Shown here one piece after another: positions 4,250 through 36,121 of a stretch of 36,121 nt of DNA. The stretch lies in the IMG/VR virus record IMGVR_UViG_2778261180_000005; one strand, given 5' to 3'. Origin of the DNA: a virus. Its lineage: Duplodnaviria; Heunggongvirae; Uroviricota; Caudoviricetes. How positions within the stretch are numbered: position 1 is the first letter of the stretch; each line of letters opens with the position of its first letter. Below the pieces are notes generated by a model, which worked only from the letters and a program-made list of their open reading frames with translations, ran no database searches and was not told the DNA's origin. A program made the position numbers and the translations under genes.

Positions 4250-4289
4250 TAAAGGTAATGCCTATAAGATAAATTAAGTGAGGTTTTTT

Positions 4290-6804: not shown

Positions 6805-6849
6805 TACGCCCCCGATATTTTTATATAGTTTAATGGCAAAATTATTTAG

Positions 6850-6891: not shown

Positions 6892-6909
6892 AATTATAAA
6901 AATTAAATT

Positions 6910-20000: not shown

Positions 20001-20613
20001 TTAACTGATTTTCCGCATAGACTTTATTTGCTGCGATAGTGCGGTCAGTTTCTGTCTTAATCAGATCAACTTTGTCATTGATTGCTTTGTCATTACTTGC
20101 GATTGTCGCGTCGGTACGGGATTTAATATCATCAACTTTTTTATTGATGCGGGTGTCCAGTTCCTGAGTTGCTACAGCAGCCGCATTTTTATTAGCGTTG
20201 ATGGTATCCGACAATTCAGCTTTAACACCAGCAAGATCGGAAGCAGCTTTATTTTTATTAGCTTCGATTGTCGCGTCGGTTTCGCGTTTAATTACATCAA
20301 CTTTATTGTTAATTTCTGCATGATTTGCTGCGATAGTAGAATCAGTAGTTTGTTTAATTTCATCTACTTTAGCGTGAATATTGCGGTCATTTACTGCAAT
20401 TGTGCTATCCAATTCTTGTTTGTTAGCATCAACTTTAGATTCTAGTGCCGCGTGAGTTTCAGGAGAAACAGAGATTTGAACTACTTCATGATCTCGGTCT
20501 TTGGTAAAAATAACATGGTCTTTAAGGTTGATTGCCACCTCACCGACCTGTAATTGTTCCGGCGTTGGCTTTTTGCCAGAAACATTAGTTCGTTTAAATT
20601 GGATTGATTGCAT
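17092..20613 (-). CDS. long tail fibre with C-terminal intramolecular-chaperone (peptidase S74) domain, 1173 aa
   Basis: Fibre-type N-terminus (IQFKRTNVSGKKPTPEQLQVGEVAINLKD). About 22-aa TDxTIAANxxxINxKVDxIK shaft repeats. KPTPAEIGAYS motif. C-terminus YIRSDRRLKINVEDY...GIIAQDLQEILPEAV is typical of S74 autoproteolytic chaperones (endosialidase, T5 pb1). Confidence 0.9.
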   Translation of the reverse strand: MQSIQFKRTNVSGKKPTPEQLQVGEVAINLKDHVIFTKDRDHEVVQISVSPETHAALESKVDANKQELDSTIAVNDRNIHAKVDEIKQTTDSTIAANHAEINNKVDVIKRETDATIEANKNKAASDLAGVKAELSDTINANKNAAAVATQELDTRINKKVDDIKSRTDATIASNDKAINDKVDLIKTETDRTIAANKVYAENQLTDTYNNLTGVIAANKQEAADNVAALTRDVEAKNSAIHSKVDNNKSYTDSELARLESRIDAADGSSDGKYIKKHVNTYTDGYLLSKTANYFDDPSARNLDYFGAFRMNDLAGHIAMILHVPHPSGVNHARGFEFTYGSNPVHTVRTYGYDELGNLSYSHRMYHEGDKPTPAEIGAYSKAEIDRLFQKTLNFGIEGGWFKLGTLTMPQQHGRTAKIRLVGGNGYNVGMNGQANIIELVIRCGNNSPKGVVFNAYYTIWHYEQHFCAIPTDGDNYDLYAYYGAHTGFVLAEYQVSSGGVSLNLLDTPEYLGGEKPVADEIFDALNISSFNNFSNRGTLNFAGNHQGQYDIEHMNEQPTNAKKMLRRFRSSAPATIWHESVDDQNYRLATGYTDVTQQLLLSAVTGLHIRRLTIDGGLGSGSNAGIDIRRGPNEASHFNFMDYRTGQDVRNGWFGFGDLTTKDFIWWNDNGQNSINLIEDGELHITGGKGQKIVMNSEVALSENARLAVKGGNYGLMLRNDGSSFHILTTNLKDSFGSWNNRRPFSYNFDDGGLYLGGTETARCLHLGIDGSTRLEDNLLFKSGSRQSMDYMELVHWGASNTGRNNVLSLRDSKGFLAEFERTGTNSIKTRFFGETFTDGTLYLNQMNNSSERFSINNWGNSEVGRAAVMEIGDSKGYHFYTERRTDNTVLFDVAGALTVHGPTGITIKNSTGARHIWFRDDSESEKAVIWATDDGILHIRNNHGGSFSHHFQGAMIKAGERVPYNGEYALIRGEVSGGAWDDWRNRPAGILLDCQDSHTQAYSIWKATHWGVDHLAAMGVHAGGGQATVMMHMNKGGWYSWAANGDFTSSASVYCNDVYIRSDRRLKINVEDYEENAVDKVNKLKVKTYDKVKSLSDREVIAHEIGIIAQDLQEILPEAVSTSNVGSLDNPEEILTISNSAVNALLIKAVQEMSEENKLLRERLAAIEAKLG

Positions 20614-22425: not shown

Positions 22426-24405
22426 TCATTCGGAGATGTGAAGAACTTTCAGAGCTTCCGGCTGGGTTACAACATAGTCCAGATCTACCCAGATACGCGG
22501 AACGATAGCGGACTGTGCACGGTAGGTGGTGTCGTCCATATCCAGTTCCAGACCGCCCCACTCACCGATAGTAATACCGGAGAAGTCACCCAGAACGATG
22601 TGATCTGCCGGGATAACACCAGAAGTAACTACATCGTAACCAGCCAGTTTGCCGTTTTCGATGATATAACCGGAAACACCGTTATCTTTCAGGGTAGATT
22701 CCAGTTCAGCAGCAGTTGCACCGCTCATCGCAAACTTGATCGCCTGAGCAGGAACGCCAGCGTCGGTCAGTGCTGCAATTTCTTTCAGGAAGTCTTTGTA
22801 GCTGAAAGCGGCTTTCTTAGTAACACGGCTTGCATCAACCAGTTGTTTAACCAGACCAGCAGGACCGCGCTCATTGTCTTTGTCAGACAGAATCAGTTGT
22901 TCCAGTTTGATGCGAACAGCCTGGTTGATGTGATCAGTGATCAGGGTAGCGATACCCGGAACGGTTTTAATGCTCTGACGGCTGATCGGGTTGCCACCAG
23001 CAAAAGTCTTAGGAGACAGTTTCACGTTTGCAAATTCAGCTTTGCCTTCCGGTGCAGCACCGTTTTCATCAACGAAGCCGAAAGCGTCAACGCTGGATTT
23101 AGTCATTTTTGGAATAGCGGTCGGAGCAGTCAAGCCACTGTAAACAGTCACACCCAGACGACCCAGAACGGATTCCGGCATCAGCATTTCGATGTAGGAT
23201 TCAGTCAGCAGTTTTTCGTCGGTGATAGCAGTCAGGTCAGCTTTGGTGTTACCAGCAGCAGCAGCACGCATAGCAGCAGCAGGAACGAATACAGAGCCAC
23301 CACGAGCAGCACGACCACGCTGCATAGTTGCAGTAGCAGCCATTGCGGAATATTCAGCTTCATGAGCGCCGAGCACGTCGCCATCTACCAGGGAGCGGAT
23401 TACGTTATTAAGATCGAAAGTTTTTTCCATTTTAGAGTCCTTAATTTGTTGTTCGTTGTTACGTTGAGCAGTAGCGATTTTATTTAGTGCCTTAGTGCGG
23501 AATGCTTCCGGCGTCATGTCTTTAATTGCTAATGCGCGTTTCAATTCTTCGTCATCAATATTTAGTTCGCGTGCAATTTCGCGAATTTCTAATTCGTCTT
23601 CTTCGGAACGTTCAGCCACTTCTTCGATTTTTTCTTCTTCAATCGGAGCGGCTTCACGTTCTTCTTTTACTTCTTCTGCTTCCCGAACAGTTGAACTATC
23701 ATCATCAACACTTTCAGGATGTTCAGCGTCTTTTCCGTCTTCGAGATTTTCATCTTCTTTATTCTCTTCAACTTTCGGTTCTTTATTTTCTTCTACCGGA
23801 GTTTCTTCAACCTGAGCGGGTTCTTGTTCTTCTTTGATTTCTTCGATTTGTTCTTTAGTCATATCGCGTTTAGCCTCCAAATTAACTGTGATAGTATTTA
23901 GAGAGCGATTTAAACCGACCGTATCGTCAGCAGGAACTGTCACAAATGAAATTTCAAAGGGTGCCCACTTAGTAACAATCAATTGTCCTTTAGCGTAATC
24001 GATGTGATACTCTTTAATGTCATAGCCGACCGATATTTTTTCCATCGTACCTTCAATGACTTTATTACGAATATCATTAGCCAAAGTCCCATGCTTAGAG
24101 AATTTAACCAGAGCACGGCCTACGTTATCCGCATCGATTCGAGCGTTACAGACAACACCAATGTGATTATCGAAATTATGATTGAACAGCAACGGAGCGT
24201 TATTATTCAGGCGAGACAGATCAACCGCTTCCGGTGTATGTACCAGAATTTCATCTAATACCACCATTTCTTGATTTTGCTCATCCCAGAATTGGCGCTG
24301 GTAAGGCTGGGTACTGGAGAAAGCAATTTCAAATTCGTATTGATCGTTATGCCCTTCGTTAATAACTCCACCGTAACCGTTAAGATCGCGGCGAAATTTA
24401 AGCAT
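22426..24405 (-). CDS. prohead protease / major capsid protein fusion (659 aa)
   Basis: N-terminal ~170 aa are prohead-serine-protease-like (LLFNHNFDNHIGVV). An acidic E/K-rich linker follows. The C-terminal ~350 aa are HK97-fold capsid-like. Codon usage is strongly optimised. Confidence 0.85.
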   Translation of the reverse strand: MLKFRRDLNGYGGVINEGHNDQYEFEIAFSSTQPYQRQFWDEQNQEMVVLDEILVHTPEAVDLSRLNNNAPLLFNHNFDNHIGVVCNARIDADNVGRALVKFSKHGTLANDIRNKVIEGTMEKISVGYDIKEYHIDYAKGQLIVTKWAPFEISFVTVPADDTVGLNRSLNTITVNLEAKRDMTKEQIEEIKEEQEPAQVEETPVEENKEPKVEENKEDENLEDGKDAEHPESVDDDSSTVREAEEVKEEREAAPIEEEKIEEVAERSEEDELEIREIARELNIDDEELKRALAIKDMTPEAFRTKALNKIATAQRNNEQQIKDSKMEKTFDLNNVIRSLVDGDVLGAHEAEYSAMAATATMQRGRAARGGSVFVPAAAMRAAAAGNTKADLTAITDEKLLTESYIEMLMPESVLGRLGVTVYSGLTAPTAIPKMTKSSVDAFGFVDENGAAPEGKAEFANVKLSPKTFAGGNPISRQSIKTVPGIATLITDHINQAVRIKLEQLILSDKDNERGPAGLVKQLVDASRVTKKAAFSYKDFLKEIAALTDAGVPAQAIKFAMSGATAAELESTLKDNGVSGYIIENGKLAGYDVVTSGVIPADHIVLGDFSGITIGEWGGLELDMDDTTYRAQSAIVPRIWVDLDYVVTQPEALKVLHISE

Positions 24406-26539: not shown

Positions 26540-28444
26540 TTAGAACGATGTTACCCAACTACGGCCTCTATTTGGACGTCTGGCGATGTTTTTACGTTGT
26601 GGTCGTGTGATTGGCTTAGTTTCTTCGATTTTCTCGTCAGATTGCGATTTAGGAGCTTTTACGGGTTCTTCGACAACACGGTTTAAGCTGTCTTTCATTG
26701 CAATGAGTTTATCCCATGACATTTTTGAAAGGACGTAGCGAGAAGCCGCTGTAGCATACACGGCGCAGTCGAGCGCCTCGTTCCTAACGCCTGGGTTCTT
26801 TACCCATCTCACGCCAGTAGTAGTACGCTTGACAGATTCACTTAAAAGCTGATCGAGATAATCATCAGGAACGGTGTCTGATATTTCTAAGCCAATATGA
26901 GGATTATCTTTCAGGTTCCTAGCCAACATTTCACGAAATGCAGTTTTACCCACATTAACACCCAACATAAGCAATTCATGACCACCTGTGCGGGTAGGTT
27001 TAACCGGAATGATCGGAGCGTTACCAGCAGAACTACCTTTGATAGCGTGTAAGTTCTTCCACTTGCCGCAAATACGGTATCCAGCTTGAGTGAATCGACC
27101 GTTCGATGTATCAAGGAAGCTGGCGAGCATAGGAACACGATCACCCGATACAGTAGTAAATTTGGTTTTATGGAAGTTGATTAATCTATCCCATACAGGG
27201 GATTCATATCGTTCACAGTTATGATCGTAAAAGCTGCGATGATCCAGAATATAAATCTTATCCTTTGCCACGCCCATGATTGTAGTTTCTGCGCGATCTA
27301 ATTGCTGGTCGGTACCCGCACACAAGAAAATCACGTCATCAGGGATATTCTCGATAGAAACATCTGTTTTTAGTTGTTCCAGTTCATTTGCTTCTACTGC
27401 CGTGTCCTGATCGTCGTATACCTTGCCTAACACGGTGTTATAAAATGATTGTAAATCAAAGGATTGCCACGCATGGCTAAAATCAACCACACAAGCGCGG
27501 ATCGTGCTGAAAGGTGAATACAGACGGCTGATCCAGAATCCTGCTACCTCACTTTCACGGGTTGCTCTCCACTCGCCTTGTGCTACTGCCCTGATTCGTT
27601 CCCCTTCGGTCCATGCGTTCTTACAGTGGGGGCAAATATAACGAGCGGTATCAGGATCGGGTAAGTTCTTACCATCGATGTTACGCCATTCAAATTGAAC
27701 GTTTTCCCACTCGATCACCTGGTGTTCCCCGCAATGAGGACACGGAACAAAAAACATACGCATATCACTTGATAACCATTGCTGGTTAATGCTTCCGAGC
27801 TTACTGGTCGGGGTACTGGATACGACTAATCGGCCTTCATCGCCAAAGGTAGTTAAACGGTTAGCAGCCAGTGCCACCGGATCACCTTCTTCTGAGGCTG
27901 TAGCAGCATCGATTTCGTCAAGCAATCCAACCTTTGCGGTCTTACCGCGTAGGGTTGATGGACTAGTAAGCGATACCATATAAAGGAAGTGGTTTGATTT
28001 GAGCTGGAGCTGATTGTTGTTATTAACAGAATTGCGATCATTCTTGTCTGTAACCACGTCTTTTAATGCATCACATGCTTCGATAGACGGTCGGATCTTA
28101 CCCGCGAGATATTGAGACATTTCTTTAGCGGTTGATTGTCCGATAATCATATTGCATGGATCGTTAGCCATCTGGTTAAACAGGATACCGTTTAGGATGG
28201 TAGTTTTTCCGATCTGCGCACTGGTCATCAGTACATACTTTTTCTTATTCTCAAGGAAAGGAGCATCAATCATGCCTTTCTGGAATGACAGCAATTTAAC
28301 TTTATCCCCCGCTTGAGGACCATCTACCAGCACCATATTCGCTTCGCACCATTCAGAAGGAAGGAGTTTAGGCGGTGGCGTAATATATTTGGCTGCATTT
28401 TTGAGAATCTTTTTTAATTTGGCCTTATTAGAAATCAGTTTCAT
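26540..28444 (-). CDS. terminase large subunit, lambda gpA type (634 aa)
   Basis: Walker A SAQIGKTT, Walker [11 protein letters not shown], paired CxxC motifs (CPHCGEHQ ... CPHCKNAW). First gene of the late operon. SD GAGGGT. Confidence 0.95.
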
Positions 28445-28529
28445 GTAATTACCCTCATTACGAAATATGAAGGTATTTATTAAATTGTTGATATTTTGAT
28501 AAATACGGGTATTAATTAAAGGGGGGTGT

Positions 28530-29132
28530 ATGCTAATTAATCAGCAACAAAGAGATGAATTAGAATTAGCCTTGTCTTGTACCGATCATGAATATCGTTT
28601 ACCAGTTAAGCATAAGCATTTAAAAACCGACTACACAACATCTGGCTTTAGTCGTGAGGAAGCGAAAGAGATTTTAATAGAGTTTTACCGCGATAATGGT
28701 TATACAGACGTTCACAACTTCTTTAAGAAGCATAGAACATCACATACAGAGTTTCGGAGAGTCCGAGATTGGTTTGATTTTGATATCAAGCGTTATTATC
28801 GAGTGGATGACGGTCCTATCTATCGGTTGCAGTGGACACCGATCAGGGAAGTGTTGAAACAGAAGAGATTGAATCACGCAATTACACGCTATCGTAACGA
28901 GGCTTTCAAGAAAGGCTATGGTGATACAAGGGAACTATTCGTTGAACTCGCTAACGTGCGTTATAGCCACTATTACAACGATCCTAAAGGGTTCTTTGAA
29001 GTGCTTCGCAAGGTTGATATAAGTCGGGGTACATACTATTCACGGTTGAAGAAGTACGGGATTAAGGCAGAGTTCTTTATGAGTATTGACGATGGAGAAC
29101 TTTTTCCGATAAAATGTAAGTCCTCTAAATAA
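28530..29132 (+). CDS. DNA-binding protein with two tandem copies of a ~55-aa HTH module (200 aa)
   Basis: Internal duplication. The second module, [30 protein letters not shown], matches the 75-aa and 60-aa proteins. SD GGGGGG. Confidence 0.7.
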
Positions 29133-29166
29133 AGGTGAACATTCACTTTAATTTGGAGAAATGACT

Positions 29167-29394
29167 ATGACTACTAAAGCTACTCGCGGTCGTCCTTGCC
29201 GTTTTAACGCTGAACAGATGGCTGATATTGCCTACGCTTACTATACAGCGGATCGTGGTAAGGAAGCGAAAGAACAGATTCTTAGTGAACATGGGATCTC
29301 AATCGCCCAATTCTATAAGAATATGAAGAAGTTAGACATTAAATTCTATGTTCAGATCGGTGATGGTCAGATCGTAGAAGCAACAGGTTTTTGA
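29167..29394 (+). CDS. small HTH protein, paralogue family (75 aa from ATG 29167)
   Basis: RGRPCRF...GISIAQFYKNMKKLDIKFYVQIGDGQIV. GGAG lies 8 nt before ATG 29167 but only 2 nt before ATG 29161. Confidence 0.7.
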   Translation: MTTKATRGRPCRFNAEQMADIAYAYYTADRGKEAKEQILSEHGISIAQFYKNMKKLDIKFYVQIGDGQIVEATGF

Positions 29395-29409
29395 GTTTTG
29401 ATTCTCTTT

Positions 29410-29433
29410 GCCACTCTTCGGAGTGGCTTTTTT
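29410..29433 (+). terminator. rho-independent terminator
   Basis: GCCACTC-TTCG-GAGTGGC followed by TTTTTT. Confidence 0.85.
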
Positions 29434-29568
29434 GTATGTAAAACAATCTCGCCAGTTTTGGTGAGATCTATAGATGCCCTCAAAACTGAGGGGATGTGCT
29501 TAAAGTTCAGCATATCTATCTAAGTGGTTGATTCTTTCTAGAAATCCAAATCTGGATGCATCAGATAC

Positions 29569-29598
29569 AAAAAAGCCCAGCGCAATTATGCGCCGGGC
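29569..29598 (-). terminator. rho-independent terminator after the Rha-like gene
   Basis: Minus strand reads GCCCGGCGCA-TAAT-TGCGCTGGGC followed by TTTTTT. Confidence 0.8.
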
Positions 29599-29604
29599 GA
29601 TTAA

Positions 29605-30435
29605 TCAGATCCCAAAATCAACAAGGGAAATTACGTTACCTGATTCACGAATCTGTTTAGCAGCTTTGTTTTGAATCAGAATAGTGTTGTTCGGCTTAGG
29701 AAGATTCAGAGTTGCTTTTTGTTCTTCTTCCAGAATACCCAATTCAACCAACACAGGAAGAACATCAACCGTAAACTCAAGTTGGTAGTGAGCATTCATG
29801 CGGCAGAAAGACAGAGAAGAGTCATTAGCAACATACCCACACGGCTTGTTATTTTCATCGTAGACGCGCTCAATGTAGCCAGCAGTACGCAAGGCCGTTA
29901 GTGCTTCTTTAACCTTCGTAGCGCCCTTTTTAGCGCCTAACAGACGGGTCATTGAATGGCTATCTACTGATTTGCGAACATGAAGTTCAATCAGCTTTTT
30001 ATTTTCGCGAGTTTTCTTTAATGCCAGTTCGATCCAGTCTGTTTCTTCAAAGTCTGCATATGGATTAACGGCTAAACGTTCCTGACGCAGTTTTTCATTT
30101 TCTTCTTTCAGTCGCTTCCATTCCTGAATAACAACCATTCGACGCTTAACATCGTAACCAGTGACAAGAGTCAGCGTCATTTCTTCGTCTAAGTGATATA
30201 CTGGTTCTTTAACAGCATATCCTAAGTTATTGATTCTCTCGACAAATTCAGTTTTGAGCTGATCGATAATACCTAAAGATTCGTACATTTCGCGAATATC
30301 GCGCATTACATTGCTGTGCTTCTTATCGGTAAATTCAGCGATCTGACGAGAAGACATGGTCAGCGGTTTGGTGTTATCAACAACCAGAGACATTGAAGCA
30401 GTTTTAACAGTATTCATAGTAGTAACAGTATTCAT
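29605..30435 (-). CDS. Rha-family phage regulatory protein with C-terminal winged-helix-like domain (276 aa)
   Basis: MSSRQIAEFTDKKHSNVMRDIREM is the Rha N-terminal signature. The first 18 nt are tandemly duplicated (MNTVTT/MNTVKT). Confidence 0.8.
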   Translation of the reverse strand: MNTVTTMNTVKTASMSLVVDNTKPLTMSSRQIAEFTDKKHSNVMRDIREMYESLGIIDQLKTEFVERINNLGYAVKEPVYHLDEEMTLTLVTGYDVKRRMVVIQEWKRLKEENEKLRQERLAVNPYADFEETDWIELALKKTRENKKLIELHVRKSVDSHSMTRLLGAKKGATKVKEALTALRTAGYIERVYDENNKPCGYVANDSSLSFCRMNAHYQLEFTVDVLPVLVELGILEEEQKATLNLPKPNNTILIQNKAAKQIRESGNVISLVDFGI

Positions 30436-30538
30436 AGTAAAAATTCCCCTTAAACGGTTTAGTGATTGATTCTCCTGTTTTTAACTGTCCACACGCCAAC
30501 GGCGCGCGGAACAATTTTATTTATAAGAAGTTTTTATC

Positions 30539-30685
30539 TCATTTAGATTCAGCAATCGCGCGATCAATTTCTTCTTGAATGCGACGCTGGCGTTCATGGA
30601 AGTCAACCATTGAGAAATTCAGGTTTGGGGTCCACGGTTTGCGGTTCGGGTTTTTACGTCCATCAATTTTCTTAGTAGTGTTCAT
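30539..30685 (-). CDS. putative small basic protein (48 aa)
   Basis: Not in the ORF track. MNTTKKIDGRKNPNRKPWTPNLNFSMVDFHERQRRIQEEIDRAIAESK. SD AGAGGA 8 nt upstream. About 50 nt downstream of a strong promoter. Confidence 0.5.
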   Translation of the reverse strand: MNTTKKIDGRKNPNRKPWTPNLNFSMVDFHERQRRIQEEIDRAIAESK

Positions 30686-30743
30686 AATTAACATCCTCTT
30701 TACAAATCTAGGTCAAATAGGTTCAAAGTTGTCAAGTGCGATA

Positions 30744-30772
30744 ATCATAAAAAAGTCATAAAATTTTGTCAA
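30744..30772 (-). promoter_or_regulatory. sigma70-type promoter driving the 48-aa ORF and Rha gene
   Basis: Minus strand has TTGACA (30772-30767), a 17-nt spacer, and TATGAT (30749-30744). Confidence 0.7.
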
Positions 30773-30785
30773 TACCCCTTGACAA
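30766..30785. promoter_or_regulatory. operator-like palindrome TTGTCAA-N6-TTGACAA overlapping the -35
   Basis: Perfect 7-bp inverted repeat. Further TTGAC(A/C)-type half sites at about 30711, 30721, 30729 and 30798. Confidence 0.5.
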
Positions 30786-30807
30786 GACGCCAAAGGGTTG
30801 ACCTAAC

Positions 30808-31260
30808 TTACAGCATATCTAAGCCTTCATCGTAACCGTAGAAGCCATTCTGAGAAGAGAAGCAGATTGGTGCGTAGTCGTCGTCATCTTCGTCTTGTTC
30901 ATCGTGTTCTGGGGCTTCCTGAGCGGGTTGTTTACCATAATCAGCCATAATCTGGTCAAGATCGGCGATCCCATAGTAAGAGCCTAAATCAACGTCATAT
31001 TCACGAACATCAAACGGCAGGTCATCACGAACAATAATTGCCGGAATGTTGTTGTATTGTTCACGACCTTCATCAGTAAAGCAGTCTACGATCACCGTAG
31101 GGCGACCATTACGTTTAAGAGCATAGAAAGCAGTTGAGAAATTGGAGTCTTCGGAATGACGAATGATGTTATAACCACGATTAGCGAAAACATGCATCAT
31201 AGCCAGATTATCATCATGGTTCAGACCCAGAAGAATGAAAGGAGTTTTAGTATTGATCAT
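30808..31260 (-). CDS. hypothetical protein with highly acidic C-terminal tail (150 aa)
   Basis: SD AGAGGA. C-terminus EAPEHDEQDEDDDDYAPICF...YDEGLDML. No family recognised. Confidence 0.7.
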   Translation of the reverse strand: MINTKTPFILLGLNHDDNLAMMHVFANRGYNIIRHSEDSNFSTAFYALKRNGRPTVIVDCFTDEGREQYNNIPAIIVRDDLPFDVREYDVDLGSYYGIADLDQIMADYGKQPAQEAPEHDEQDEDDDDYAPICFSSQNGFYGYDEGLDML

Positions 31261-31356
31261 AGTGGAAATCCTCTAAAAGAAAGTGAATCAAAGTAAGTTC
31301 ACTATTATTTATAACGAGAAATTTTTGTCTAATTTGAAAGGAATTGGTATTCAGTC

Positions 31357-31858
31357 GGCTTCGCCTCCTTCATAGATTTTGATTAAATCATCATCAAAAC
31401 GAAGAAGTATCTTTAGAATATAAGAATCTTTCTTTTGGAGAAATAATAATCCGGAAGCAATTTAGCAACCGAAGGTTGCAATCCCGAAGGGATACCAATA
31501 CCTTTCATGATCATTAAAGTGATCTAGAATCATCTAGTAACCAGTTAACTACTATTATCTTCAAAGTGATTATTACTATCTTTCTAGAATCAGTTAGTAA
31601 CTAGTTTAAAATCCCTTTCAAGAAAATCCTTTCAGAAGTGATTCTCGATGCCACGCAGTGGCGTCGCAGACGTTTGAGAGTGAGCGAAGCGAGCGAGCAA
31701 ACTAGTTAATTCCTTCTAAGACCATCTAGTATCATCTAGTTTAAATTAGTGTTACTAGAAGTAATTGGTTAGCGCTTCGCGCAGTCGGGCTACGCCCTCC
31801 TAATATCTTTTTGGTTATTTGTTGTTTTTGGTTTTACACATGAGCGTAGCGAATGTGT
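31357..31858. repeat. cluster of G/C-clamped mini-hairpins with trinucleotide GNA (or complementary TNC) loops
   Basis: GGC-TTC-GCC 31357. GCAACC-GAA-GGTTGC 31465. ATCCC-GAA-GGGAT 31481. GATGCCAC-GCA-GTGGCGTC 31647. GC-GAA-GC 31684. GCGC-TTC-GCGC 31772. GGGC-TAC-GCCC 31787. ACACAT-ga(GC-GTA-GC)ga-ATGTGT 31836. Confidence 0.75.
31523..31606. repeat. two copies of a 24-bp CTAG-rich repeat exactly 60 bp apart
   Basis: TCTAGAATCATCTAGTAACCAGTT (31523-31546) and TCTAGAATCAGTTAGTAACTAGTT (31583-31606), 21/24 identical. Related CATCTAGT motifs at 31724-31740. Confidence 0.75.
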
Positions 31859-31890
31859 TATATAATATCTATGCACGCCCGATCCCCCGC

Positions 31891-32133
31891 TTTTGCCCCT
31901 CACTAAGTTAATGTTTTATAAAGAGTTTTTCTCACCAATCCTTTTCGGGGGCAAATTTCAGGGGCAAAAATTAGATTTTCAGGGGCAATTATTGGCATTT
32001 CAGGGGCAAAAATGAGGGGCAAAATCACTGTTTCCCAGAATTTCAGGGGCAAAAATAGTGGGTTTCAGGGGCAAAAATGGGATAGTGAAATCTAGGGGAT
32101 TTTGGTTCAGGGGCAAAATTCAGGGGCAAATTT
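31891..32133. repeat. iteron array: nine direct copies of (T)TTCAGGGGCAAA(A) plus one inverted copy
   Basis: GGGGCAA cores start at 31948, 31961, 31982, 32003, 32016, 32046, 32068, 32110 and 32123. The inverted copy is at 31893-31899. Confidence 0.9.
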
Positions 32134-32135
32134 CA

Positions 32136-32185
32136 TAGTGTAGGGCTAGTGTAGGTTTGAAAATCCTTTGTTGACACTGTGTAGG
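32136..32185. promoter_or_regulatory. three GTGTAGG operator-like repeats around the promoter
   Basis: TAGTGTAGG at 32136-32144 and 32147-32155. TGTGTAGG at 32178-32185, inside the -35/-10 spacer. Confidence 0.6.
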
Positions 32186-32199
32186 ATCGGTGGTATACT
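32171..32199 (+). promoter_or_regulatory. near-consensus sigma70 promoter with extended -10
   Basis: TTGACA (32171-32176), 17-nt spacer, TGgTATACT (32191-32199). Confidence 0.8.
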
Positions 32200-32465
32200 T
32201 GAAAATTCGAGATAAATATGTTATAATATTTGTATTGAAAGTGAAAATTTACCGATTTTCCTTCCTATTGTTATCACTGTGTTAAATTGTTATATGTCTG
32301 TGAAGATTTGGATCTGAGAGAAAATCTTGTAACAAATCTTTACAATTCATAGCTCAATTAATGCTCACCGCTTTAGCAAAAAGTGCTATGCCTTTTTCTA
32401 AATTGATTGAATAAACATCAATTTGGTTAATTCGTGTTCTTCTCTTTAGCAATTCGTGCTGCGGT

Positions 32466-32512
32466 TTAACACATTTAACACGCCTGATAACATCCAAATA
32501 ACATTTTAACAT
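32466..32512. repeat. five phased (T/A)TAACA(C/T) repeats in AT-rich DNA
   Basis: TTAACAC at 32466 and 32475. ATAACAT at 32487 and 32498. TTAACAT at 32506. Spacing is 8-12 bp. Confidence 0.5.
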
Positions 32513-32591
32513 ATCTCTGTTCTAAATACATATATAAGAGATAAATGTGAGGGGTTGAAAAATTAAAAACAATCCCCATATAAATAATAGT

Positions 32592-32612
32592 GAGCGGTTA
32601 ACGCTCTTTTTT
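32592..32612 (+). terminator. short terminator/attenuator at the end of the untranslated leader
   Basis: GAGCG-GTTAA-CGCTC followed by TTTTTT. Lies 35 nt before the start of the 60-aa HTH gene. Confidence 0.55.
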
Positions 32613-32647
32613 AAGAAATCATTAATCCAGATTTAGGAGGATTCAAG

Positions 32648-32830
32648 ATGGCACGACCTGTTAAGTTCACTCGTGAAATCGTTTTAGAAATGGCAAAGCG
32701 TTATTTTGAACTGACGCCTGATGTAGTGATTGGTGAATGGTTTAAAGGTGAAGGTATTGATCAATCAACCTTCCACAAACTCTTAAAGAAGTATGACATT
32801 AAAGTAAAGATAACCGCAGAGGTTTACTGA
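32648..32830 (+). CDS. small HTH protein, paralogue family (60 aa)
   Basis: ARPVKFTREIV...GIDQSTFHKLLKKYDIKVKIT. Strong SD AGGAGG. Confidence 0.75.
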   Translation: MARPVKFTREIVLEMAKRYFELTPDVVIGEWFKGEGIDQSTFHKLLKKYDIKVKITAEVY

Positions 32831-32872
32831 TACTTTGACTGAGAATTATATGATGGCTTTAAAAATAAAAAA

Positions 32873-32900
32873 GCCCCCTTGCGGCAACAAGGAGGCTTTT
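32873..32900 (+). terminator. terminator-like hairpin
   Basis: GCCCCCTTG-6nt-CAAGGAGGC (one mismatch) followed by TTTT. Confidence 0.6.
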
Positions 32901-32942
32901 GCGATGAACAATTAAAACTAACTTTCCACAGGAGTATTTATA

Positions 32943-33884
32943 ATGTTATTTTCCGCTAACTTTTTCACTAACGAAGTAACCAACGCTAAAGCAGTTATCA
33001 AATTTGGCACCGAAGCAAACAAGAAGATTCAGCCGAAAGTTGTTGCTCATGTTTCCTTTGCGCAGCAGAAATCCGCTTTCGCTGGCTTTAAAGCACATCG
33101 TGAAGCACTGATCGCGGCTGGCTTTGGTGTTGACGGTAAACTGCCTAACGGCATTCGTAAAGCAATCGACCGCGTTAAACCTGCTAAAGACGTTGCAGTA
33201 GACCACATCGTTACTTTTACCGTTAAGAACTCTTCTGAACTGTTCCACCTGGTTATTGCTGGTGATACTGCTATCGTTTCCGCTCCTAACATGGATTTTC
33301 AGGATACCGCTGATTGCCAGATCACCTTCGGTCGTCGTAAAGAAGTTACCGGAAAAGCTAAACTGAACTTCACTAAATCCGGCAATCCTTACTTTGCTGT
33401 TTTCTTTAACAGCCACGCTACCGAAAAAGAAGTTGTAGAACTGGTTGCTTATGAAGGTGAAGAGAAAGAACGTATTGAATCTTGCGAAGCATTTCTGGAA
33501 CTGGAAGCACAGGTGAATGCTGTTTCTCCGGTTGTTGAAGATCGCTTTGCTGCACTGGAAGCACAGATCGCAGAACTGAAAGCTGCACTGGAAGAAAAAG
33601 ACCAGATTATCGAAGCACAGAAAGCTGAGATTGAAGAACTGAAAGCTAAAGAAGTTGCTCCGGTAGCAGTAGTTGAAAACGCGGCTGATGAGGCCGCAAA
33701 TGATGAAGTAGAAGTGAAAATCGATGTGATGCGTGATCCGATGGCTGCACTGCAATTACTTCGTTCTTTTAAGGGCAAATCTCATTTTTCTAGTGATGTA
33801 GAAGATGAGGAAGAAGAACAGAAACGCAATGCTGCAATGCTTCATGATGAAATGTACGGTACTAACTTTTCTTACTGCCAATAA
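32943..33884 (+). CDS. abundant-expression-type protein of unknown function (313 aa): globular N-domain, coiled coil, acidic C-terminus
   Basis: SD AGGAG. Codon choice is dominated by E. coli high-expression codons (CTG, GAA, AAA, CGT, GGT, GCT). Coiled coil FAALEAQIAELKAALEEKDQIIEAQKAEIEELKAK. Confidence 0.85.
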   Translation: MLFSANFFTNEVTNAKAVIKFGTEANKKIQPKVVAHVSFAQQKSAFAGFKAHREALIAAGFGVDGKLPNGIRKAIDRVKPAKDVAVDHIVTFTVKNSSELFHLVIAGDTAIVSAPNMDFQDTADCQITFGRRKEVTGKAKLNFTKSGNPYFAVFFNSHATEKEVVELVAYEGEEKERIESCEAFLELEAQVNAVSPVVEDRFAALEAQIAELKAALEEKDQIIEAQKAEIEELKAKEVAPVAVVENAADEAANDEVEVKIDVMRDPMAALQLLRSFKGKSHFSSDVEDEEEEQKRNAAMLHDEMYGTNFSYCQ

Positions 33885-33906
33885 AAAAGGGACTCCGAAG
33901 AGTCCC
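33883..33906. terminator. hairpin terminator (T-run on the minus strand only)
   Basis: GGGACTC-CGAA-GAGTCCC, preceded on the plus strand by AAAAAA. Confidence 0.55.
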
Positions 33907-33983
33907 TAGTAAGTTTAGGTTAGGTTTTGCACAACAAAGATGAGGTTATAATGAACATAATGCTACATTATTCTTTAAAGCCA

Positions 33984-34010
33984 GAAAAATAACCGCCCCC
34001 TTCGGGGCGG
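33984..34010 (-). terminator. rho-independent terminator after the 94-aa membrane protein gene
   Basis: Minus strand reads CCGCCCC-GAAG-GGGGCGG followed by TTATTTTT. Confidence 0.7.
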
Positions 34011-34168
34011 GAGGATTAATACTCAATCTATACTTGTTATGTTTTTATGTTGTATAGTCACTGACTATGAAAACACTGTACTGAATGTGTTTTATGGCTT
34101 TTAATCGGGAACTCTCTTTCGAAAATTCCCTGTTAAAACCACATAAGGAGAAAAGGCAGATTACAATA

Positions 34169-34453
34169 TTATTTAGTCTGTTTGAAAACAAACGTTAAAA
34201 ATTCGATTAAGCAATATACCCAAAGTACGGTCAGCATCAAATGCATAGCAATAGTTGGATGGAAGTTAAAAAGTGTCATACTAACTAGGCCAACAATATA
34301 AGAAATCCCTTCGACAATTAACGCAAGGCTAGCAAATGCAACAAACGCACCTAAGAATAATTCGCCTCGTTCTTTCGGTTCGGTTCCGAGTTTATAAGCA
34401 GAGATAGCAGCCAGAATAGTAATGATGACAGCATAGGTAATAAAAGTAGCCAT
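34169..34453 (-). CDS. integral membrane protein (94 aa, 3-4 predicted TM helices)
   Basis: Hydrophobic throughout. SD AAGAGGA. Directly downstream of the Nu1-like gene. Confidence 0.7.
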   Translation of the reverse strand: MATFITYAVIITILAAISAYKLGTEPKERGELFLGAFVAFASLALIVEGISYIVGLVSMTLFNFHPTIAMHLMLTVLWVYCLIEFLTFVFKQTK

Positions 34454-34479
34454 AGTTTTATATCCTCTTAAAAGTTAAG

Positions 34480-34498
34480 CGGGGGATGTTCTCCCCCG
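34480..34498 (-). other. intercistronic stem-loop
   Basis: CGGGGGA-5nt-TCCCCCG between the Nu1-like gene and the membrane protein gene. Confidence 0.5.
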
Positions 34499-34547
34499 TA
34501 GACGTTGACCCGTTCAACATCTTTCTCACTATTATTTATAACGCGTT

Positions 34548-35105
34548 TTAAGACACATCAAATTCATCGTCTTCTTCTGGTTCTTGTTCTTCCGGTTCAT
34601 CCATTAATGGTAATTCTTCTTCCTCGTCTTCTCCCAAATCTGCATTTTCGAACAAGTCCCCTACTTCATTTAAACGACGCTCGATAATCTCCCTTAGCTT
34701 ATTCTTTAATGTTTTCTGGTCAGTGGCAGATTCGAGAATTTCTAAAGCGTCGATTGTGGCGATCTGCAAAATAGTCTGCTTCACTTTCCCGCAGTATTCC
34801 GCTAGCTCCTGCTCCACATAACCGACGGGAATCAGGAGATTCATTTTTTCCTGGTTCTCTCGTTCGATGGCGTCCGCTAATGCTCTTTCTCTGCGGAGAC
34901 GTTCTTGATCAATCGCTTCTTTGATTGAAGTTTGTTTAAGTGGGTTAATTACGTTCTTTAGCACCCAATCGCAACCTTCCTTTGCTGGTACACGACGCGT
35001 GTGGGTGTTCATCGGTAGTCCCCTTTCTAACCATCGCTTACCGCCACCATTCAATGTATAGCCATATAAACGGGAAATTTCTGTAAGGGTTAATTCTTCT
35101 TTCAT
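34548..35105 (-). CDS. putative terminase small subunit, Nu1-like winged-HTH protein (185 aa)
   Basis: The N-terminus LTLTEISRLYGYTLNGGGKRWLERGLPM...VPAKEGCDWV parallels lambda Nu1 (KKQLADIFGASIRTIQNWQEQGMPV...). Coiled-coil middle, acidic tail. SD GGAGGA. Confidence 0.55.
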   Translation of the reverse strand: MKEELTLTEISRLYGYTLNGGGKRWLERGLPMNTHTRRVPAKEGCDWVLKNVINPLKQTSIKEAIDQERLRRERALADAIERENQEKMNLLIPVGYVEQELAEYCGKVKQTILQIATIDALEILESATDQKTLKNKLREIIERRLNEVGDLFENADLGEDEEEELPLMDEPEEQEPEEDDEFDVS

Positions 35106-35401
35106 TGGTTATCCTCCATTAAATTTGCGTAATTTTATTTATTGGTTTTACGCAAAATCTAAGCGCCTAAATCGCATTCTAACGAAGGGAAAGATCCAGT
35201 AATGGTAAGGGTTAGGAAGTGGGTTAATAGTCGCGTAGCGACCGCGCCATGAGTGAAGTGATCACGTTTTAGATCCTGACGCGCACATCAAATAACGGGG
35301 TGCCGAAAACTCGCTTTATTTCACCCGTGGAACAGTACCTTTTGATTTTGTCAAGTCTTTTTTATAAATAATCGAAAATATTTTTCACGCGAGGGCAAAT
35401 C

Positions 35402-35707
35402 ATGAAGACTAAAGATATTAAGATTGAATTTGAAACTGTTGATGACGTTCGGGAACATCGTATTGATTCTACTGGCTGCATCTTCCAGCTTACTAACTCC
35501 CCTATTGGATTGATTATCTATGTAGCAGAAGATGACGTGTACGCTATGTGGGATGGACAGGATGAATTTAAAGGCGGGAATAGCCATCTGATCAATACTC
35601 ATGAGGGATTCGATCCGACTCCTGTCTGTATGCTTGCTTATCACGTAACACTGGATGAACTACCGGAAGCAAGCGCGCGTATCCGTAAAATGAAAGATAT
35701 TAAGTGA
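35402..35707 (+). CDS. hypothetical protein (101 aa)
   Basis: SD GAGGG 6 nt upstream, terminator downstream. Preferred over the overlapping minus-strand ORF 35351-35644. Confidence 0.6.
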   Translation: MKTKDIKIEFETVDDVREHRIDSTGCIFQLTNSPIGLIIYVAEDDVYAMWDGQDEFKGGNSHLINTHEGFDPTPVCMLAYHVTLDELPEASARIRKMKDIK

Positions 35708-35726: not shown

Positions 35727-35754
35727 AGCCCTGTCCTTGTGATGGGGCTTTTTT
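35727..35754 (+). terminator. rho-independent terminator
   Basis: AGCCCTGTC-5nt-GATGGGGCT (with G.T pairs) followed by TTTTTT. Confidence 0.7.
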
Positions 35755-35770: not shown

Positions 35771-36121
35771 TTATTGGGGTTTACAACATTTAGGTTTGCC
35801 AATTCGCCTGGCTAACTCTTGCTGAGTGATTTCTGACTGTAAAAAAGCATTTAACAGCAATACTTTAGAGGCGACGCTCAAAGGTACTTCAATAAAGTGA
35901 TCATGACTATTTAATGGCGAAGGTAACGGGATAAGCTCGTTATCTTCAAAATAAAAATCAAATGCGGTCAGTAAAGCATCTTTTGCCGCTTCCATCGCTT
36001 CAGCGACAGTTTCGCCCTGCGTCAACGCTTCAGGGATATCCACAAAAGAAACCATATAACCGCCTTCCGGCGCGGGTGTAAGAGTGACGGGATAACGCAT
36101 AATTTCGACTGTCTCTCGCAT
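35771..36121 (-). pseudogene. hicB: hicB antitoxin gene truncated by the phage insertion (HicB residues 1-104 plus 5 phage-encoded codons CCKPQ)
   Basis: MRYPVTLTPAPEGGYMVSFVDIPEALTQGETVAEAMEAAKDALLTAFDFYFEDNELIPLPSPLNSHDHFIEVPLSVASKVLLLNAFLQSEITQQELARRIGKPK matches E. coli HicB as I recall it. The native protein continues QEITRLFN...; here it continues CCKPQ-stop. Confidence 0.85.

Follow-up and report, generated by a model that had tools for sequence, protein, structure and literature searches.

Our analyses show that the ~6-kb island between the two terminase genes of an E. coli prophage is a conserved control module belonging to the phage itself, an ancestral arrangement kept across three genera. 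Judged from their co-variation in sequence, a protein of this island, p313, and an adjacent iteron array form a matched specificity pair. With somewhat less than even confidence, we propose that the array and p313 constitute a replication origin and a new initiator relying on host replication proteins; the role of this cassette, in replication or in immunity, is something that we infer.

The prophage, ~35.8 kb long and inserted in hicB, is complete within the window, as we call the whole 36,121-nucleotide stretch analysed. Its left end (attL) lies ~45 bp left of window position 1, with ydcR and the 3' end of hicB beyond it. The features that define its extent and its packaging genes are the following:

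995–2689, plus strand: large serine recombinase (integrase) at the left prophage end (Pfam Resolvase 8e-15, Zn_ribbon_recom 7e-10, Recombinase 1e-7)
26540–28444, minus strand: terL, gpA-type large terminase (Pfam GpA_ATPase 8e-57, GpA_nuclease 8e-46; phrog_15 4e-141)
28445–28529: divergent intergenic region of 85 bp between terL and p200, read from the sequence
34480–34498, minus strand: terminator directly 3' of terS (terminator scan)
34548–35105, minus strand: terS, Nu1-like small terminase, 185 aa (phrog_57 'terminase small subunit' 6e-10, residues 58–169)
35106–35401: region upstream of terS, candidate cos/terminase recognition region
35402–35707, plus strand: 101-aa ORF in a cargo slot beside attR, with a terminator at 35727–35749
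35789–35797: attR crossover core TTTAGGTTT (AAACCTAAA on the hicB strand), the right prophage end, inside hicB

Other strains carry this element in ycdX, at a length of about 36–38 kb, and it is always chromosomal (0 plasmid placements). The two ends show that the prophage is not much larger than the window, the case that the first-pass annotation of this DNA had considered. Since both ends are placed, all non-structural functions must be within the window, and no hidden replication or repressor module exists beyond it. Besides the island, the non-structural content amounts to the integrase (the window had been said to lack any recombinase, which is incorrect), a variable cargo slot (2763–4871) and a few small ORFs; the slot beside attR carries an LprI-family or GIY-YIG protein instead in some relatives. 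The complete 35.8-kb prophage therefore has no replication or repressor candidates other than the island module. This supports the earlier proposal that the island carries regulation and replication, which the protein/iteron specificity cassette described below strengthens; which of these two functions the cassette serves is where we move to interpretation.

The packaging genes agree with the first reading of the sequence. terL is the first gene of a long minus-strand structural operon whose head genes, for a connector-like protein of 164 aa, a portal of the lambda family and a fused S78 protease–capsid, are arranged as in lambda, and the 185-aa ORF, the sole TerS-like gene, is separated from it by 6103 bp. 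TerS scores below the Pfam Phage_Nu1 model; its homologue profile gives weak matches to the TerS DNA-binding domains 6hn7 (0.075), 1j9i of lambda Nu1 (0.13) and 7lw0 (0.58), and some homologues are named 'terminase small subunit' by NCBI. As in the lambda module (cos–Nu1–A–W–B–C...), a gpA-type TerL precedes connector-like, portal and protease/capsid genes, TerS has a Nu1-like build (N-terminal HTH, central helical part, acidic C-terminus) and a candidate cos region lies immediately upstream of terS, with a conserved inverted repeat TTGCGTAA-N15-TTACGCAA (35125–35155) and a palindrome GTCGCGTAGCGAC (35230–35242). Unlike in lambda, terS and terL are separate transcription units on either side of a whole early/control region, the protease is fused to the capsid protein, and integration depends on a serine, not a tyrosine, recombinase. 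Because the terminator follows right after terS, co-transcription of terS with other genes is not obvious. The promoter scan found no good sigma-70 promoter in the 85 bp between terL and p200, which probably hold an activator-dependent late promoter.

Across E. coli, Salmonella and Proteus, ~55 relatives share the order terS, ~313 aa, ~60 aa, non-coding region, ~150 aa, ~75 aa, ~200 aa, terL, including those with TerS only 45–57% identical, and this order recurs in 34 IMG/VR prophages. None of the relatives examined has terS beside terL, none is an isolated phage, and no homologues occur among 72,556 plasmids. An insertion of a foreign element (satellite, moron island or hitch-hiker) into a once-contiguous terS–terL operon, the alternative first offered, would fit the slightly lower G+C of the island (0.35–0.40) relative to the structural genes, its mixed strands and numerous terminators, and the fact that certain inner genes differ among relatives. 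Yet the inner genes that vary are only Rha and the ORFs of 48/110 aa and 94 aa; integrase, flanking direct repeats and satellite hallmark genes are all missing from the island; and the prophage without the island would have zero regulatory genes. As the order is shared by relatives of three genera, with TerS identity down to 45%, foreign insertion is refuted, and we give it hardly any credence.

The island contains these genes:

28530–29132, plus strand: p200, basic protein (pI 9.4), with two copies of the small orphan domain of p75 and p60
29161–29394, plus strand: p75 (77-aa ORF; 75 aa as called in relatives), a single small orphan domain; terminator at 29410–29427
29605–30435, minus strand: Rha/Ant-family regulator, 276 aa (Pfam PF09669 Phage_pRha 3e-12, 47 bits against a cut-off of 29.9; PHROGs anti-repressor families 3e-17); terminator at 29575–29598
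30539–30694, minus strand: small ORF of 51 aa (48 or 110 aa in relatives), transcribed together with Rha (ORF list; near-consensus promoter 30744–30772 in the promoter scan)
30808–31260, minus strand: p150, with an alpha/beta N-terminal domain and a disordered acidic tail
32648–32830, plus strand: p60, the third small-orphan-domain gene; terminator at 32869–32900
32943–33884, plus strand: p313, candidate iteron-binding protein from its co-variation with the iterons
33888–34013, minus strand: two terminator hairpins (33888–33907 and 33993–34013) between the p313 unit and the 94-aa unit on the minus strand
34169–34453, minus strand: 94-aa membrane protein in a variable slot (IS421 or other ORFs in relatives)

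The best-conserved island protein is p200 (67–73% across genera, at least 88% within E. coli), which has no match in Pfam, PHROGs, NCBIfam, PADLOC, PDB, or phage or plasmid collections. The small domain that it shares with p75 and p60 follows the pattern GRPxxF...GIS..FY..KK.DIK, and p75 and p60 are 33% identical over 52 aa (BLASTP, E 3e-6). The acidic tail of p150, a gene transcribed away from the control region, terminates in a conserved ...YGYDEGLDML. p313 combines a basic, beta-rich N-terminal domain (residues 1–~165, pI 9.6), a ~55-residue helix (182–236) and an acidic C-terminal part (pI 4.3), and it is intact in 45 of 46 prophages; neither its sequence nor its fold, in a predicted model of moderate quality only (pLDDT 59), resembles any known initiator. 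The earlier impression that the island proteins belong to no recognisable family holds for the core proteins, which lack homologues in phage isolates, plasmids, Pfam and PDB, but not for Rha, whose gene had been left out of the protein list. This gene is a variable accessory, which the Proteus relative lacks and other relatives have replaced. The minus strand carries two or three units (150 aa; 51 aa plus Rha; 94 aa), rather than one. The count of at least seven terminators was sound: there are 14 terminator-like sites in the gap, against 5.8 ± 2.1 in shuffles, with at least eight distinct hairpins. Strong promoters are present as announced, three having 11 of 12 consensus positions (32171, 32199 and 30772), whereas promoter-like sites taken together show no enrichment (12 versus 19 ± 4.6).

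At the heart of the island, the 1.4 kb from 31261 to 32647 are, as previously described, filled with repeats and devoid of any conserved ORF. Their centre consists of ~830 bp between divergent promoters, in which clustered C-GNA-G mini-hairpins are followed by a T-rich tract, ten iterons and a strong promoter:

31304–31331, minus strand: p150 promoter-like site TAGACA-16-AATAAT (promoter scan)
31353–31860: clustered mini-hairpins, short and rich in G+C, with C-GNA-G triloops (hairpin search)
31893–32129, plus strand: type-A iteron array, (T)CAGGGGCAA(A) in 10 copies, of which seven are exact and the leftmost is inverted
32137–32227, plus strand: two boxes of the type-B iteron sequence, TAGTGTAGG, followed by a pair of overlapping near-consensus promoters
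32206–32615, plus strand: untranslated leader of ~410 nt with a terminator at its end (32592–32612)

The mini-hairpins occur on the plus strand (31465–79, 31481–93, 31650–62, 31662–72) and on the minus strand (31772–82, 31787–97), together with a 3-bp hairpin (31357–65), GCGAAGC at 31684 and interspersed copies of a TTCTAGAA-like palindrome. Six of the eight C-GNA-G mini-hairpins of the window fall within 335 bp beside the iterons (binomial p 3.8e-10; 0 of 2000 shuffles), and relatives keep their positions with different stems, that is, with compensatory changes. This hairpin region is called untranscribed by a consensus promoter scan only. Both overlapping promoters (TTGACA-17-TATACT, 32171–32199; TTGAAA-17-TATAAT, 32199–32227) point to p60 and p313. 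The leader folds at -99.1 kcal/mol, against -70.4 ± 4.9 when shuffled (z = -5.8), carries two AGCA-N5-TGCT boxes and is 93–95% conserved across specificity types; it matches no Rfam family. The non-coding control region of the window has neither DnaA boxes nor a textbook AT-rich unwinding element, and no LexA box was found in the island. By contrast, perfect DnaA boxes and AT-rich repeats, three of each, are present in the corresponding cassette of one relative, L026.

All exact iteron copies of the window are confined to the array, at spacings of 13, 21, 21, 13, 30, 22, 42 and 13 bp, and end 36 bp upstream of the -35 element. Across relatives there are at least five iteron types, and the iteron sequence changes only jointly with the N-terminal domain of p313, type matching type with zero exceptions. 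Among type-A loci that include the non-coding region, 26 of 26 have AGGGGCAAA (4–8 copies), and among the tabulated type-B loci, 16 of 16 have GTGTAGG (9–14 copies); type C consists of CTAGGGAT in 9–13 copies, and types D and E of other repeats with other ORFs. Types C and D have ~8-bp cores phased by 11 bp in runs of at least seven. Variants of terS, terL, p60, p75, p150 and p200 reassort freely relative to this cassette. Between the window and its relative L024, non-homology is limited, with exact boundaries, to 31641–32267 and the p313 ORF, the leader and p60 flanked by them being 93% identical. This bears on the array as a packaging recognition site (pac/cosB) for TerS, an idea suggested by its location between both terminase genes and by the repeated sites that small terminases often bind. 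The iteron type is independent of the TerS and TerL types; instead, the TerS N-terminus co-varies with the 200 bp immediately upstream of terS and with TerL type, and 35106–35401 swaps jointly with it (window versus L024 and L020). We consider such a packaging role extremely improbable.

Several observations argue for an origin. The prophage is complete, its gene order conserved, and iteron type tracks p313 type; the exact iterons occupy one locus, and p313 has a basic N-terminal domain with an acidic remainder; GNA mini-hairpins cluster beside the iterons, and L026 adds DnaA boxes and AT-rich repeats. The rep genes of P1, F and pSC101, which are autoregulated, have the same order of iterons, promoter and gene. 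Against an origin stand the dissimilarity of p313 to known initiators and the control region without DnaA boxes or an AT-rich unwinding element. Rep iterons typically measure 17–22 bp; iterons such as those of types C and D, with ~8 bp phased at 11 bp, are seen more typically in arrays for centromere-binding proteins or transcription factors. Moreover, a multiplicity of exchangeable specificities among phages that are nearly identical is the classic signature of immunity regions. Accordingly, p313 might be a prophage repressor that coats the array and controls the divergent promoters of p150 and of leader–p60–p313 in a lysis–lysogeny switch, the five or more cassette types being heteroimmune variants and replication being left to host functions alone or to another orphan protein. 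The protein/site cassettes swap among phages otherwise 90–95% identical, as lambdoid immunity regions typically do; divergent promoters flank the array, the strong one adjoining it; a variable Rha/Ant-type anti-repressor gene is next door; p313 is almost always intact; and types A and B coexist in one double lysogen. The direct-repeat arrays of P2 Cox and 186 Apl sites are likewise phased by one helical turn. However, HTH_3/XRE and S24 domains and a Cro-like partner are all missing (Pfam), and the type-A iterons, because they end 36 bp upstream of the -35 element at a single locus, could control at most two promoters, not terS, terL, p200 or Rha. In strain BS74R-D, two family members that are distinct from each other share an identical p313 and the same iteron type. 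This is easier to understand if the cassette is an origin than if it determines immunity, and a switch leaves the GNA hairpin cluster and the L026 DnaA boxes without a role. We regard an immunity switch as rather unlikely, yet as the chief rival of the origin model.

The phased short repeats of types C and D, together with the long coiled-coil-like helix of p313, could also suggest a centromere-like segregation or DNA-organising module, in which p313, as a ParR/TubR-like adaptor, would organise the excised or replicating genome or silence the prophage without initiating replication. The array is upstream of the p313 operon, and R1 parC is similarly upstream of its own operon. Nevertheless, a partner NTPase (ParA, ParM, TubZ) is nowhere in the prophage, the element integrates by a serine integrase and is always chromosomal, and plasmids hold no homologue; this explanation appears improbable.

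The candidate origin resembles iteron replicons (lambda O/ori-lambda, P1 RepA/incC, F RepE, pSC101 RepA) in its direct repeats, which cluster beside the promoter of a neighbouring protein and match the N-terminal domain of that protein, in its exchangeable specificity types and, if it is an origin, in needing host replication proteins. It departs from them in that p313 shares neither sequence nor predicted fold with Rep_3/winged-helix initiators or lambda O, its iterons of 9–13 bp (in relatives 8 bp, phased at 11 bp) are shorter, and a leader and a small gene separate repeats from protein gene. With RSF1010 oriV and G4-type complementary-strand origins it shares iterons beside stable G+C-rich hairpins on both strands: C-GNA-G-type hairpins mark the priming origins of G4, St-1 and alpha3 and the ssiA (CCGAAGG) of RSF1010 oriV (PMC13037366). 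Nonetheless, six to nine very short hairpins, with a priming role that is putative and drawn by analogy, contrast with two long ssi palindromes, and RepB'-like primase and RepA helicase are absent from the prophage. The mosaic cassette, its position between divergent promoters and its phasing recall lambdoid immunity regions and P2 Cox/186 Apl arrays, from which it differs by the lack of a CI/Cro-type HTH protein and, in type A, of an operator overlapping a core promoter, by its single-locus sites and by the existence of same-type double lysogens. A Rha/Ant-family gene with its own strong promoter inside the control region is reminiscent of Gifsy-type Ant/Rha-mediated induction, unlike which the Rha of this lineage is dispensable and the island has no LexA box.

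Under the origin model, the island would be a compact early/control region that, in this lineage, lies between terS, with its cos region, and terL. The iteron/hairpin region would be the replication origin and p313 an initiator of a new kind, binding iterons by its basic N-terminal domain, oligomerising through its central helix and recruiting host replication proteins by its acidic C-terminus. Opening of the adjacent T-rich DNA would then allow stable mini-hairpins to extrude on both strands. p313 bound beside its own promoter, together with the terminated leader, would keep p313 expression low, and the small basic p200, p75 and p60 would probably act as transcriptional and excision regulators. 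terS would form its own unit beside cos, and terL would have a separate activator-dependent promoter. Host primase may use the extruded mini-hairpins as signals for single-strand initiation (priming), and the phage would then not need a helicase, loader or primase of its own.

Our analyses show that the window is an E. coli chromosomal segment with one complete prophage of low G+C content (about 41%), ~35.8 kb in size and lying essentially all inside the window. Its genes run, in the left part, from three small ORFs through a serine recombinase to a variable cargo slot; on the minus strand, through the lysis, tail and head genes, the portal, a connector-like gene and a gpA-type large terminase gene (terL, 26540-28444); and, in the right part, through an island (28445-34547) to the small terminase gene (terS, 34548-35105, minus strand), one ORF and attR. 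The separation of the two terminase genes to which the first-pass annotation had drawn attention is real: terL starts at 28444 and the sole TerS-like gene ends at 34548, a gap of 6103 bp. In lambda-type terminases (Nu1 plus gpA), terS lies directly 5' of terL in one operon, whereas here opposite-strand genes and at least eight terminators stand between them. The features bearing on the ends of the prophage and on packaging are:

1-944, plus strand: three small ORFs (128, 41 and 81 aa) 5' of the integrase
995-2689: large serine recombinase with the triad of Resolvase, Recombinase and zinc-ribbon domains
2763-4871: variable cargo slot between integrase and endolysin, encoding endonuclease-like and CapR-domain proteins
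35125-35155: inverted repeat TTGCGTAA-N15-TTACGCAA, just 5' of the terS ribosome-binding site and conserved in E. coli and Salmonella relatives
35230-35242: 13-bp palindrome GTCGCGTAGCGAC upstream of terS, with a GNA loop
35771-36121, minus strand: host gene hicB at the right end, adjoined by the K-12 order tehAB-ydcL-ydcO-ydcN-ydcP-yncJ-hicA-hicB in loci with an identical 185-aa protein

The prophage shows both hallmarks of integration by a serine recombinase, namely the domain triad and an insertion within a host gene at a short shared core, and the earlier statement that no recombinase is present was wrong. The hicB gene is split at AAACCTAAA (35789-35797 on the plus strand) and, on the left side, its 3' remainder and ydcR lie ~45 bp and ~235 bp outside window position 1; in other strains ycdX, between ghrA and ycdY, is a second insertion site. 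The hicA gene is intact, the 112 N-terminal codons of the hicB antitoxin gene are now fused to 4 phage-encoded codons, and the HicB C-terminal DNA-binding part has been moved 36 kb away by the insertion (as seen from the window and from 9880-9960 of the compared locus L013). A circular or virion form among metagenome-derived IMG/VR contigs was ruled out: these contigs end in hicB and are therefore integrated prophages. Among the left-end ORFs, the 128-aa protein (p128) matches the unnamed phrog_14908 and is very common among public assemblies; of the other two, the 81-aa protein has a signal peptide and the 41-aa product is a membrane peptide, and excision would bring all three next to the 101-aa ORF (p101) across attP. 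The cargo slot, which may be a defence or anti-defence locus, encodes here 379-aa and 197-aa proteins with a common endonuclease-like (phrog_681)/CapR-type domain together with an acidic 150-aa ORF matching phrog_1051; in relatives the slot is occupied instead by a UvsW-like DEAD helicase with CapR and GIY-YIG proteins. PADLOC gave no match in this slot. In the structural part, a 1173-aa gene annotated by PGAP as 'tail fiber domain-containing' (17092-20613) lies between the head and tail modules, an odd place for a fibre gene, and a single 659-aa ORF (22426-24405) fuses an S78 prohead protease to an HK97-type major capsid protein.

TerL possesses the gpA ATPase and gpA endonuclease domains (Pfam PF05876, 8e-57; PF20454, 8e-46). 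The closest TerL (45%) is found in 'Escherichia phage DCP80' (PQ671644.1; loci L018 and L061), a 141-kb record filed under Tevenvirinae in which a ~25 kb siphovirus-like structural module is joined to T4-like genes and rIIA is duplicated; it looks like a chimeric assembly and is uninformative. The first-pass annotation had left room for the 185-aa protein not being a terminase subunit. The C-terminal two thirds of this protein hit PHROG 57 (6e-10), the family named 'terminase small subunit', and NCBI gives the same name to some of its homologues. Of the eleven best PDB matches of a profile built from 18 homologues, three are solved DNA-binding domains of TerS proteins, with weak E-values (6hn7, 0.075; 1j9i, lambda Nu1, 0.13; 7lw0, 0.58), and there was no Pfam Phage_Nu1 match at E <= 0.1. 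TerS residues 1-75 and the 200 bp of DNA 5' of its gene swap as one, tracking the TerL type (window versus loci L024 and L020), and the upstream region (35106-35300) co-varies with the TerS N-terminus and the TerL type. Because they are exchanged together, the terminase recognition site most likely lies upstream of terS, as in lambda, with the palindrome GTCGCGTAGCGAC as a candidate, putative cosN-like site. Binding of TerS to the iterons of the island, a direct repeat array described below, was considered and rejected, since the iteron type is free of the TerS and TerL types and the TerS N-terminus tracks the upstream 200 bp instead. The iterons are not a pac or cosB site, and we give a packaging role of these repeats almost no credence.

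The idea that the island might be a foreign element, satellite or moron, inserted into the packaging operon has become highly improbable, as the island is found in identical order in every relative and lacks both an integrase and flanking repeats. Of 5426 complete E. coli genomes, 64 contain a member of the element family, in each case in the chromosome, and the family is mosaic at 82-96% identity; TerS homologues are restricted to E. coli, Salmonella and Proteus. The loci of the most distant ones (45-57% identity) have the gene order of the window: terS and a small ORF come first; a gene of 318/330 aa on the opposite strand and one of 61/71 aa lead to ~1.4 kb of non-coding DNA; and a gene of 151 aa, variable genes and genes of 74 aa and 201/203 aa complete the series up to terL. 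The order is also kept in 34 IMG/VR prophage contigs (35-38 kb) and in further complete genomes, and terS stands beside terL in none of the relatives examined from the three genera. This shared layout defines a core set of terS, p313, p60, the non-coding region, p150, p75, p200 and terL (island proteins being named by their length in residues). The question of whether the island is variable thus has a divided answer: the core order is fixed, and the accessory part comprises Rha, the ORFs of 48/110 aa and that of 94 aa. IS insertions in relatives, looked at to test whether p313 is dispensable, fall in the p94 slot, with none in p313. Several transcriptional features of the original description held: at least 8 terminators where at least seven had been proposed, with 14 terminator-like hairpins versus 5.8 +/- 2.1 in shuffles; three strong promoters within the island, with 11/12 positions matching; and a 1.4-kb stretch without conserved ORF. 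By contrast, its gene list had left out a 276-aa Rha/Ant gene (Phage_pRha, 47.3 bits versus a Pfam gathering cut-off of 29.9), and its single minus-strand unit was an undercount. No Rfam family was detected in the island.

The island proteins are largely orphans. The family searches proposed by the first-pass annotation returned no informative match for p200, p75, p60, p150, p313 or p94, and across Pfam, PHROGs, NCBIfam and PADLOC these proteins, p101 and p128 yielded nothing informative beyond the unnamed PHROG of p128. Against 50,697 phage records (megablast, tblastn), neither the island nor terS, p200 or p313 of types A and C had a match, tblastn of 72,556 plasmids with p313 of types A and C was empty, and a p200 profile found no relative in the genome contigs of species representatives. 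An exhaustive representative search with the p313 N-domain recovered only proteins of the same family and spurious repeat proteins, and p313 has no homology to known Rep or O initiator families. Three of the proteins are built from one small domain, p75 and p60 being 33% identical over 52 residues (E 3e-6) and p200 consisting of two copies of it. This domain has no match in Pfam, NCBIfam or the PDB, and profile searches of PDB sequences were empty for it, for p200 and for p150. All three proteins, p200, p75 and p60, are basic. By inference, they are the likely transcriptional and excision regulators. The p150 protein combines an alpha/beta domain, for which there is only a generic P-loop-like fold match and which lacks a P-loop motif, with an acidic, disordered tail whose C-terminal peptide is invariant.

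At the centre of the island stands the combination of p313 and the iterons. The array of the window (type A) comprises ten copies of (T)CAGGGGCAA(A) at 31893-32129; no exact copy exists elsewhere in the window. Matches with at most one mismatch number 17 versus 5.2 +/- 2.4 expected. Relatives have arrays in the corresponding place with different repeat sequences:

Type B: TAGTGTAGGTTT
Type C: CTAGGGAT(G/A), with 11-bp phasing and palindromic pairs
Type D: ACGGGGA
Type E: CCTTGTACATC plus CTAATACCGGGGGAT

The protein in the p313 position changes with them, with identities of 27% between A and B, 18% between A and C, 89-95% within B and 57% within C; in types D and E, two unrelated ORFs each stand there. 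The association between iteron type and protein type is perfect in about 45 loci, in many recombinant backgrounds. In a table of 52 loci, all type-A proteins (in loci including the non-coding region) occur with 4-8 AGGGGCAAA, all type-B proteins with 9-14 GTGTAGG, and type-C proteins with 9-13 CTAGGGAT, and variants of terS, terL, p60, p75, p150 and p200 combine in many ways with either type. A place for p150 in the cassette was rejected, its variants reassorting independently. Between the window and L024 only two segments are non-homologous: one (31641-32267) takes in the iterons and the promoter, and the other (32943-33883) coincides exactly with the p313 ORF. The leader and p60 between them are 93% identical, and in L026 a p313 N-domain 54% identical to that of the window goes with a retained AGGGGCAAA core. 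The tracking of iteron type by p313 type, the segments of L024 and the core of L026 constitute strong comparative evidence that p313 would recognize the iterons via its N-terminal domain. The type-B p313 gene of L024 itself (6713-7709; strain ETEC1739) is broken into two ORFs of 177 and 146 aa by a frameshift or an error in sequencing, the sole disrupted copy among 46 loci. Copies of the type-B iteron core (TAGTGTAGG / GTGTAGG) also occur in the window between the type-A array and the promoter (32137-32155) and in the promoter spacer (32179-32185), and a type-B box is likewise promoter-proximal in elements of type A (L026) and type C (L020); these boxes may be the scar of a recombination event or else be bound by a conserved factor.

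A near-consensus promoter, TTGACA-17-TATACT (32171-32199), lies 36 bp downstream of the array end and is overlapped by a second one; the two drive an untranslated leader of 410 nt ending in a terminator, beyond which lie p60, another terminator and p313. The leader (32206-32615, ~410 nt) folds with z = -5.8 versus shuffles, is 93-95% conserved, more so than the flanking cassette, and contains two AGCA-N5-TGCT boxes, of which one is preserved unchanged across 19 nt in a Salmonella relative. The leader could be a regulatory RNA or an attenuator. It matches no Rfam family, and its sequences are either >=92% identical or unalignable, which makes covariation analysis impossible. LexA boxes are absent from the regulatory regions of the window, and no strict ones exist across loci. 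Leaders of some relatives (L020, 12940-13110; L030, 13875-13985) have two or three LexA-box-like palindromes, CACTG-N10-CAGTG, and that of L020 two exact CTGT-N8-ACAG, of which the window leader has none.

Six perfect G+C-rich C-GNA-G triloop hairpins, four on the plus and two on the minus strand, form a cluster on the left side of the array, in the interval up to the divergent p150 promoter (31304-31331), the loop motif being defined as in PMC13037366. Such mini-hairpins are exceptionally stable DNA structures, known at the primase-dependent origins of G4, St-1 and alpha3 and also in ssiA of RSF1010 oriV and in N4 early promoters (PMC13037366). These six are clustered out of only eight in the window (binomial p 3.8e-10; reached by 0/2000 shuffles), the other two being a terminator and the GTCGCGTAGCGAC palindrome 5' of terS. 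Relatives of all three genera have hairpins at matching positions with different stems (GCCAC-GCA-GTGGC; ACGCC-GTA-GGCGT; GTCCC-GTA-GGGAC), including stem swaps between conserved flanks (GGGC/GCCC; GTGC/GCAC; TGGC/GCCA), and this conservation of position with divergent stems means that the hairpin structure is under selection. A T-rich tract (31803-31840) lies between hairpins and iterons. The non-coding control region of the window has no DnaA box at <=1 mismatch. In L026, an insertion between the p60 and p313 homologues (9690-9860) contains three AT-rich repeats resembling GATTAAAAATCAA as well as three perfect DnaA boxes (AGTTATCCACAA); the window and all other loci lack them.

A matched protein/site cassette of many types fits both a replication origin with its initiator and an immunity system. 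We tentatively favour origin plus initiator, at a little under an even chance. The repeats form a cluster confined to a single locus and their specificity matches the neighbouring protein, as in iteron replicons, and none of the sites overlaps a core promoter belonging to another unit. For the hairpin cluster and the T-rich tract there are precedents in origins, and a switch would have no use for them; the cassette of L026 additionally contains DnaA boxes, and the complete prophage has no other replication candidate. Iterons, promoter and attenuated gene follow one another in the usual order for autoregulated rep genes. Also in favour of an origin are two complete genomes that are double lysogens of the family, BS74R-D and UTME-9 (NZ_CP063332.1, loci L064 and L065, and NZ_CP157110.1). 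BS74R-D holds two different members, one in ycdX and one in hicB (the latter 99.4% identical to the right end of the window), which differ in TerS, p150, Rha, p200 and TerL and have identical p313, p60 and type-A iterons; UTME-9 holds one type-A and one type-B element.

An immunity function, which we consider possible but doubtful, would account for the cassette diversity, typical of immunity regions, and for the different types of the UTME-9 co-residents, but those of BS74R-D share identical p313 and iterons, and no island protein contains an XRE/HTH_3 repressor or S24-type domain or has a Cro-like partner. Besides this diversity, several points count against an origin: the identical p313 of BS74R-D could stem from gene conversion, p313 resembles no initiator, the control region of the window lacks DnaA boxes, and some relatives have short, 11-bp-phased repeats. 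A centromere-like role of the same confined, protein-matched repeats seems improbable. A more specific and speculative version of the origin reading, to which we attach no greater likelihood than to immunity, is a minimal replicon of a kind not previously recorded, in which p313, whose basic, beta-rich DNA-binding domain is an orphan and is joined to a coiled coil and an acidic tail, would be the initiator of a new family binding the exchangeable iterons, and the C-GNA-G hairpins on both strands would serve as G4/ssiA-like priming signals. If so, a 36-kb temperate dsDNA phage would replicate without its own helicase, loader or primase, and the cassette types would be replication-specificity (incompatibility) groups.

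As a kind of region, the island is a known one, a temperate-phage early region with a mosaic specificity cassette. We found no record or paper describing its placement between terS and terL, a full-length prophage without recognizable replication and repressor proteins, or the orphan p313 domain, the small domain occurring fourfold and the battery of GNA hairpins; the interest lies mainly in the natural cassette series and in a testable origin model. At least five exchangeable protein/repeat cassettes offer a clean natural experiment to read the DNA-recognition rules of a new DNA-binding domain, and the serine integrase, with two defined attB sites (hicB and ycdX), is a ready candidate for genome engineering. 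For annotation, the lesson is that a prophage without recognizable replication or repressor genes can be complete and that terS can lie far from terL. These elements define an uncharacterised temperate phage lineage of Enterobacterales. About 1% of complete E. coli genomes carry it, it is likewise present in Salmonella and Proteus, and its whole non-structural programme consists of ~7 kb of orphan genes that separate terS from terL. Should the origin reading be right, the lineage would provide a new initiator family and would be the first among dsDNA temperate phages to use clustered GNA mini-hairpins as priming signals.
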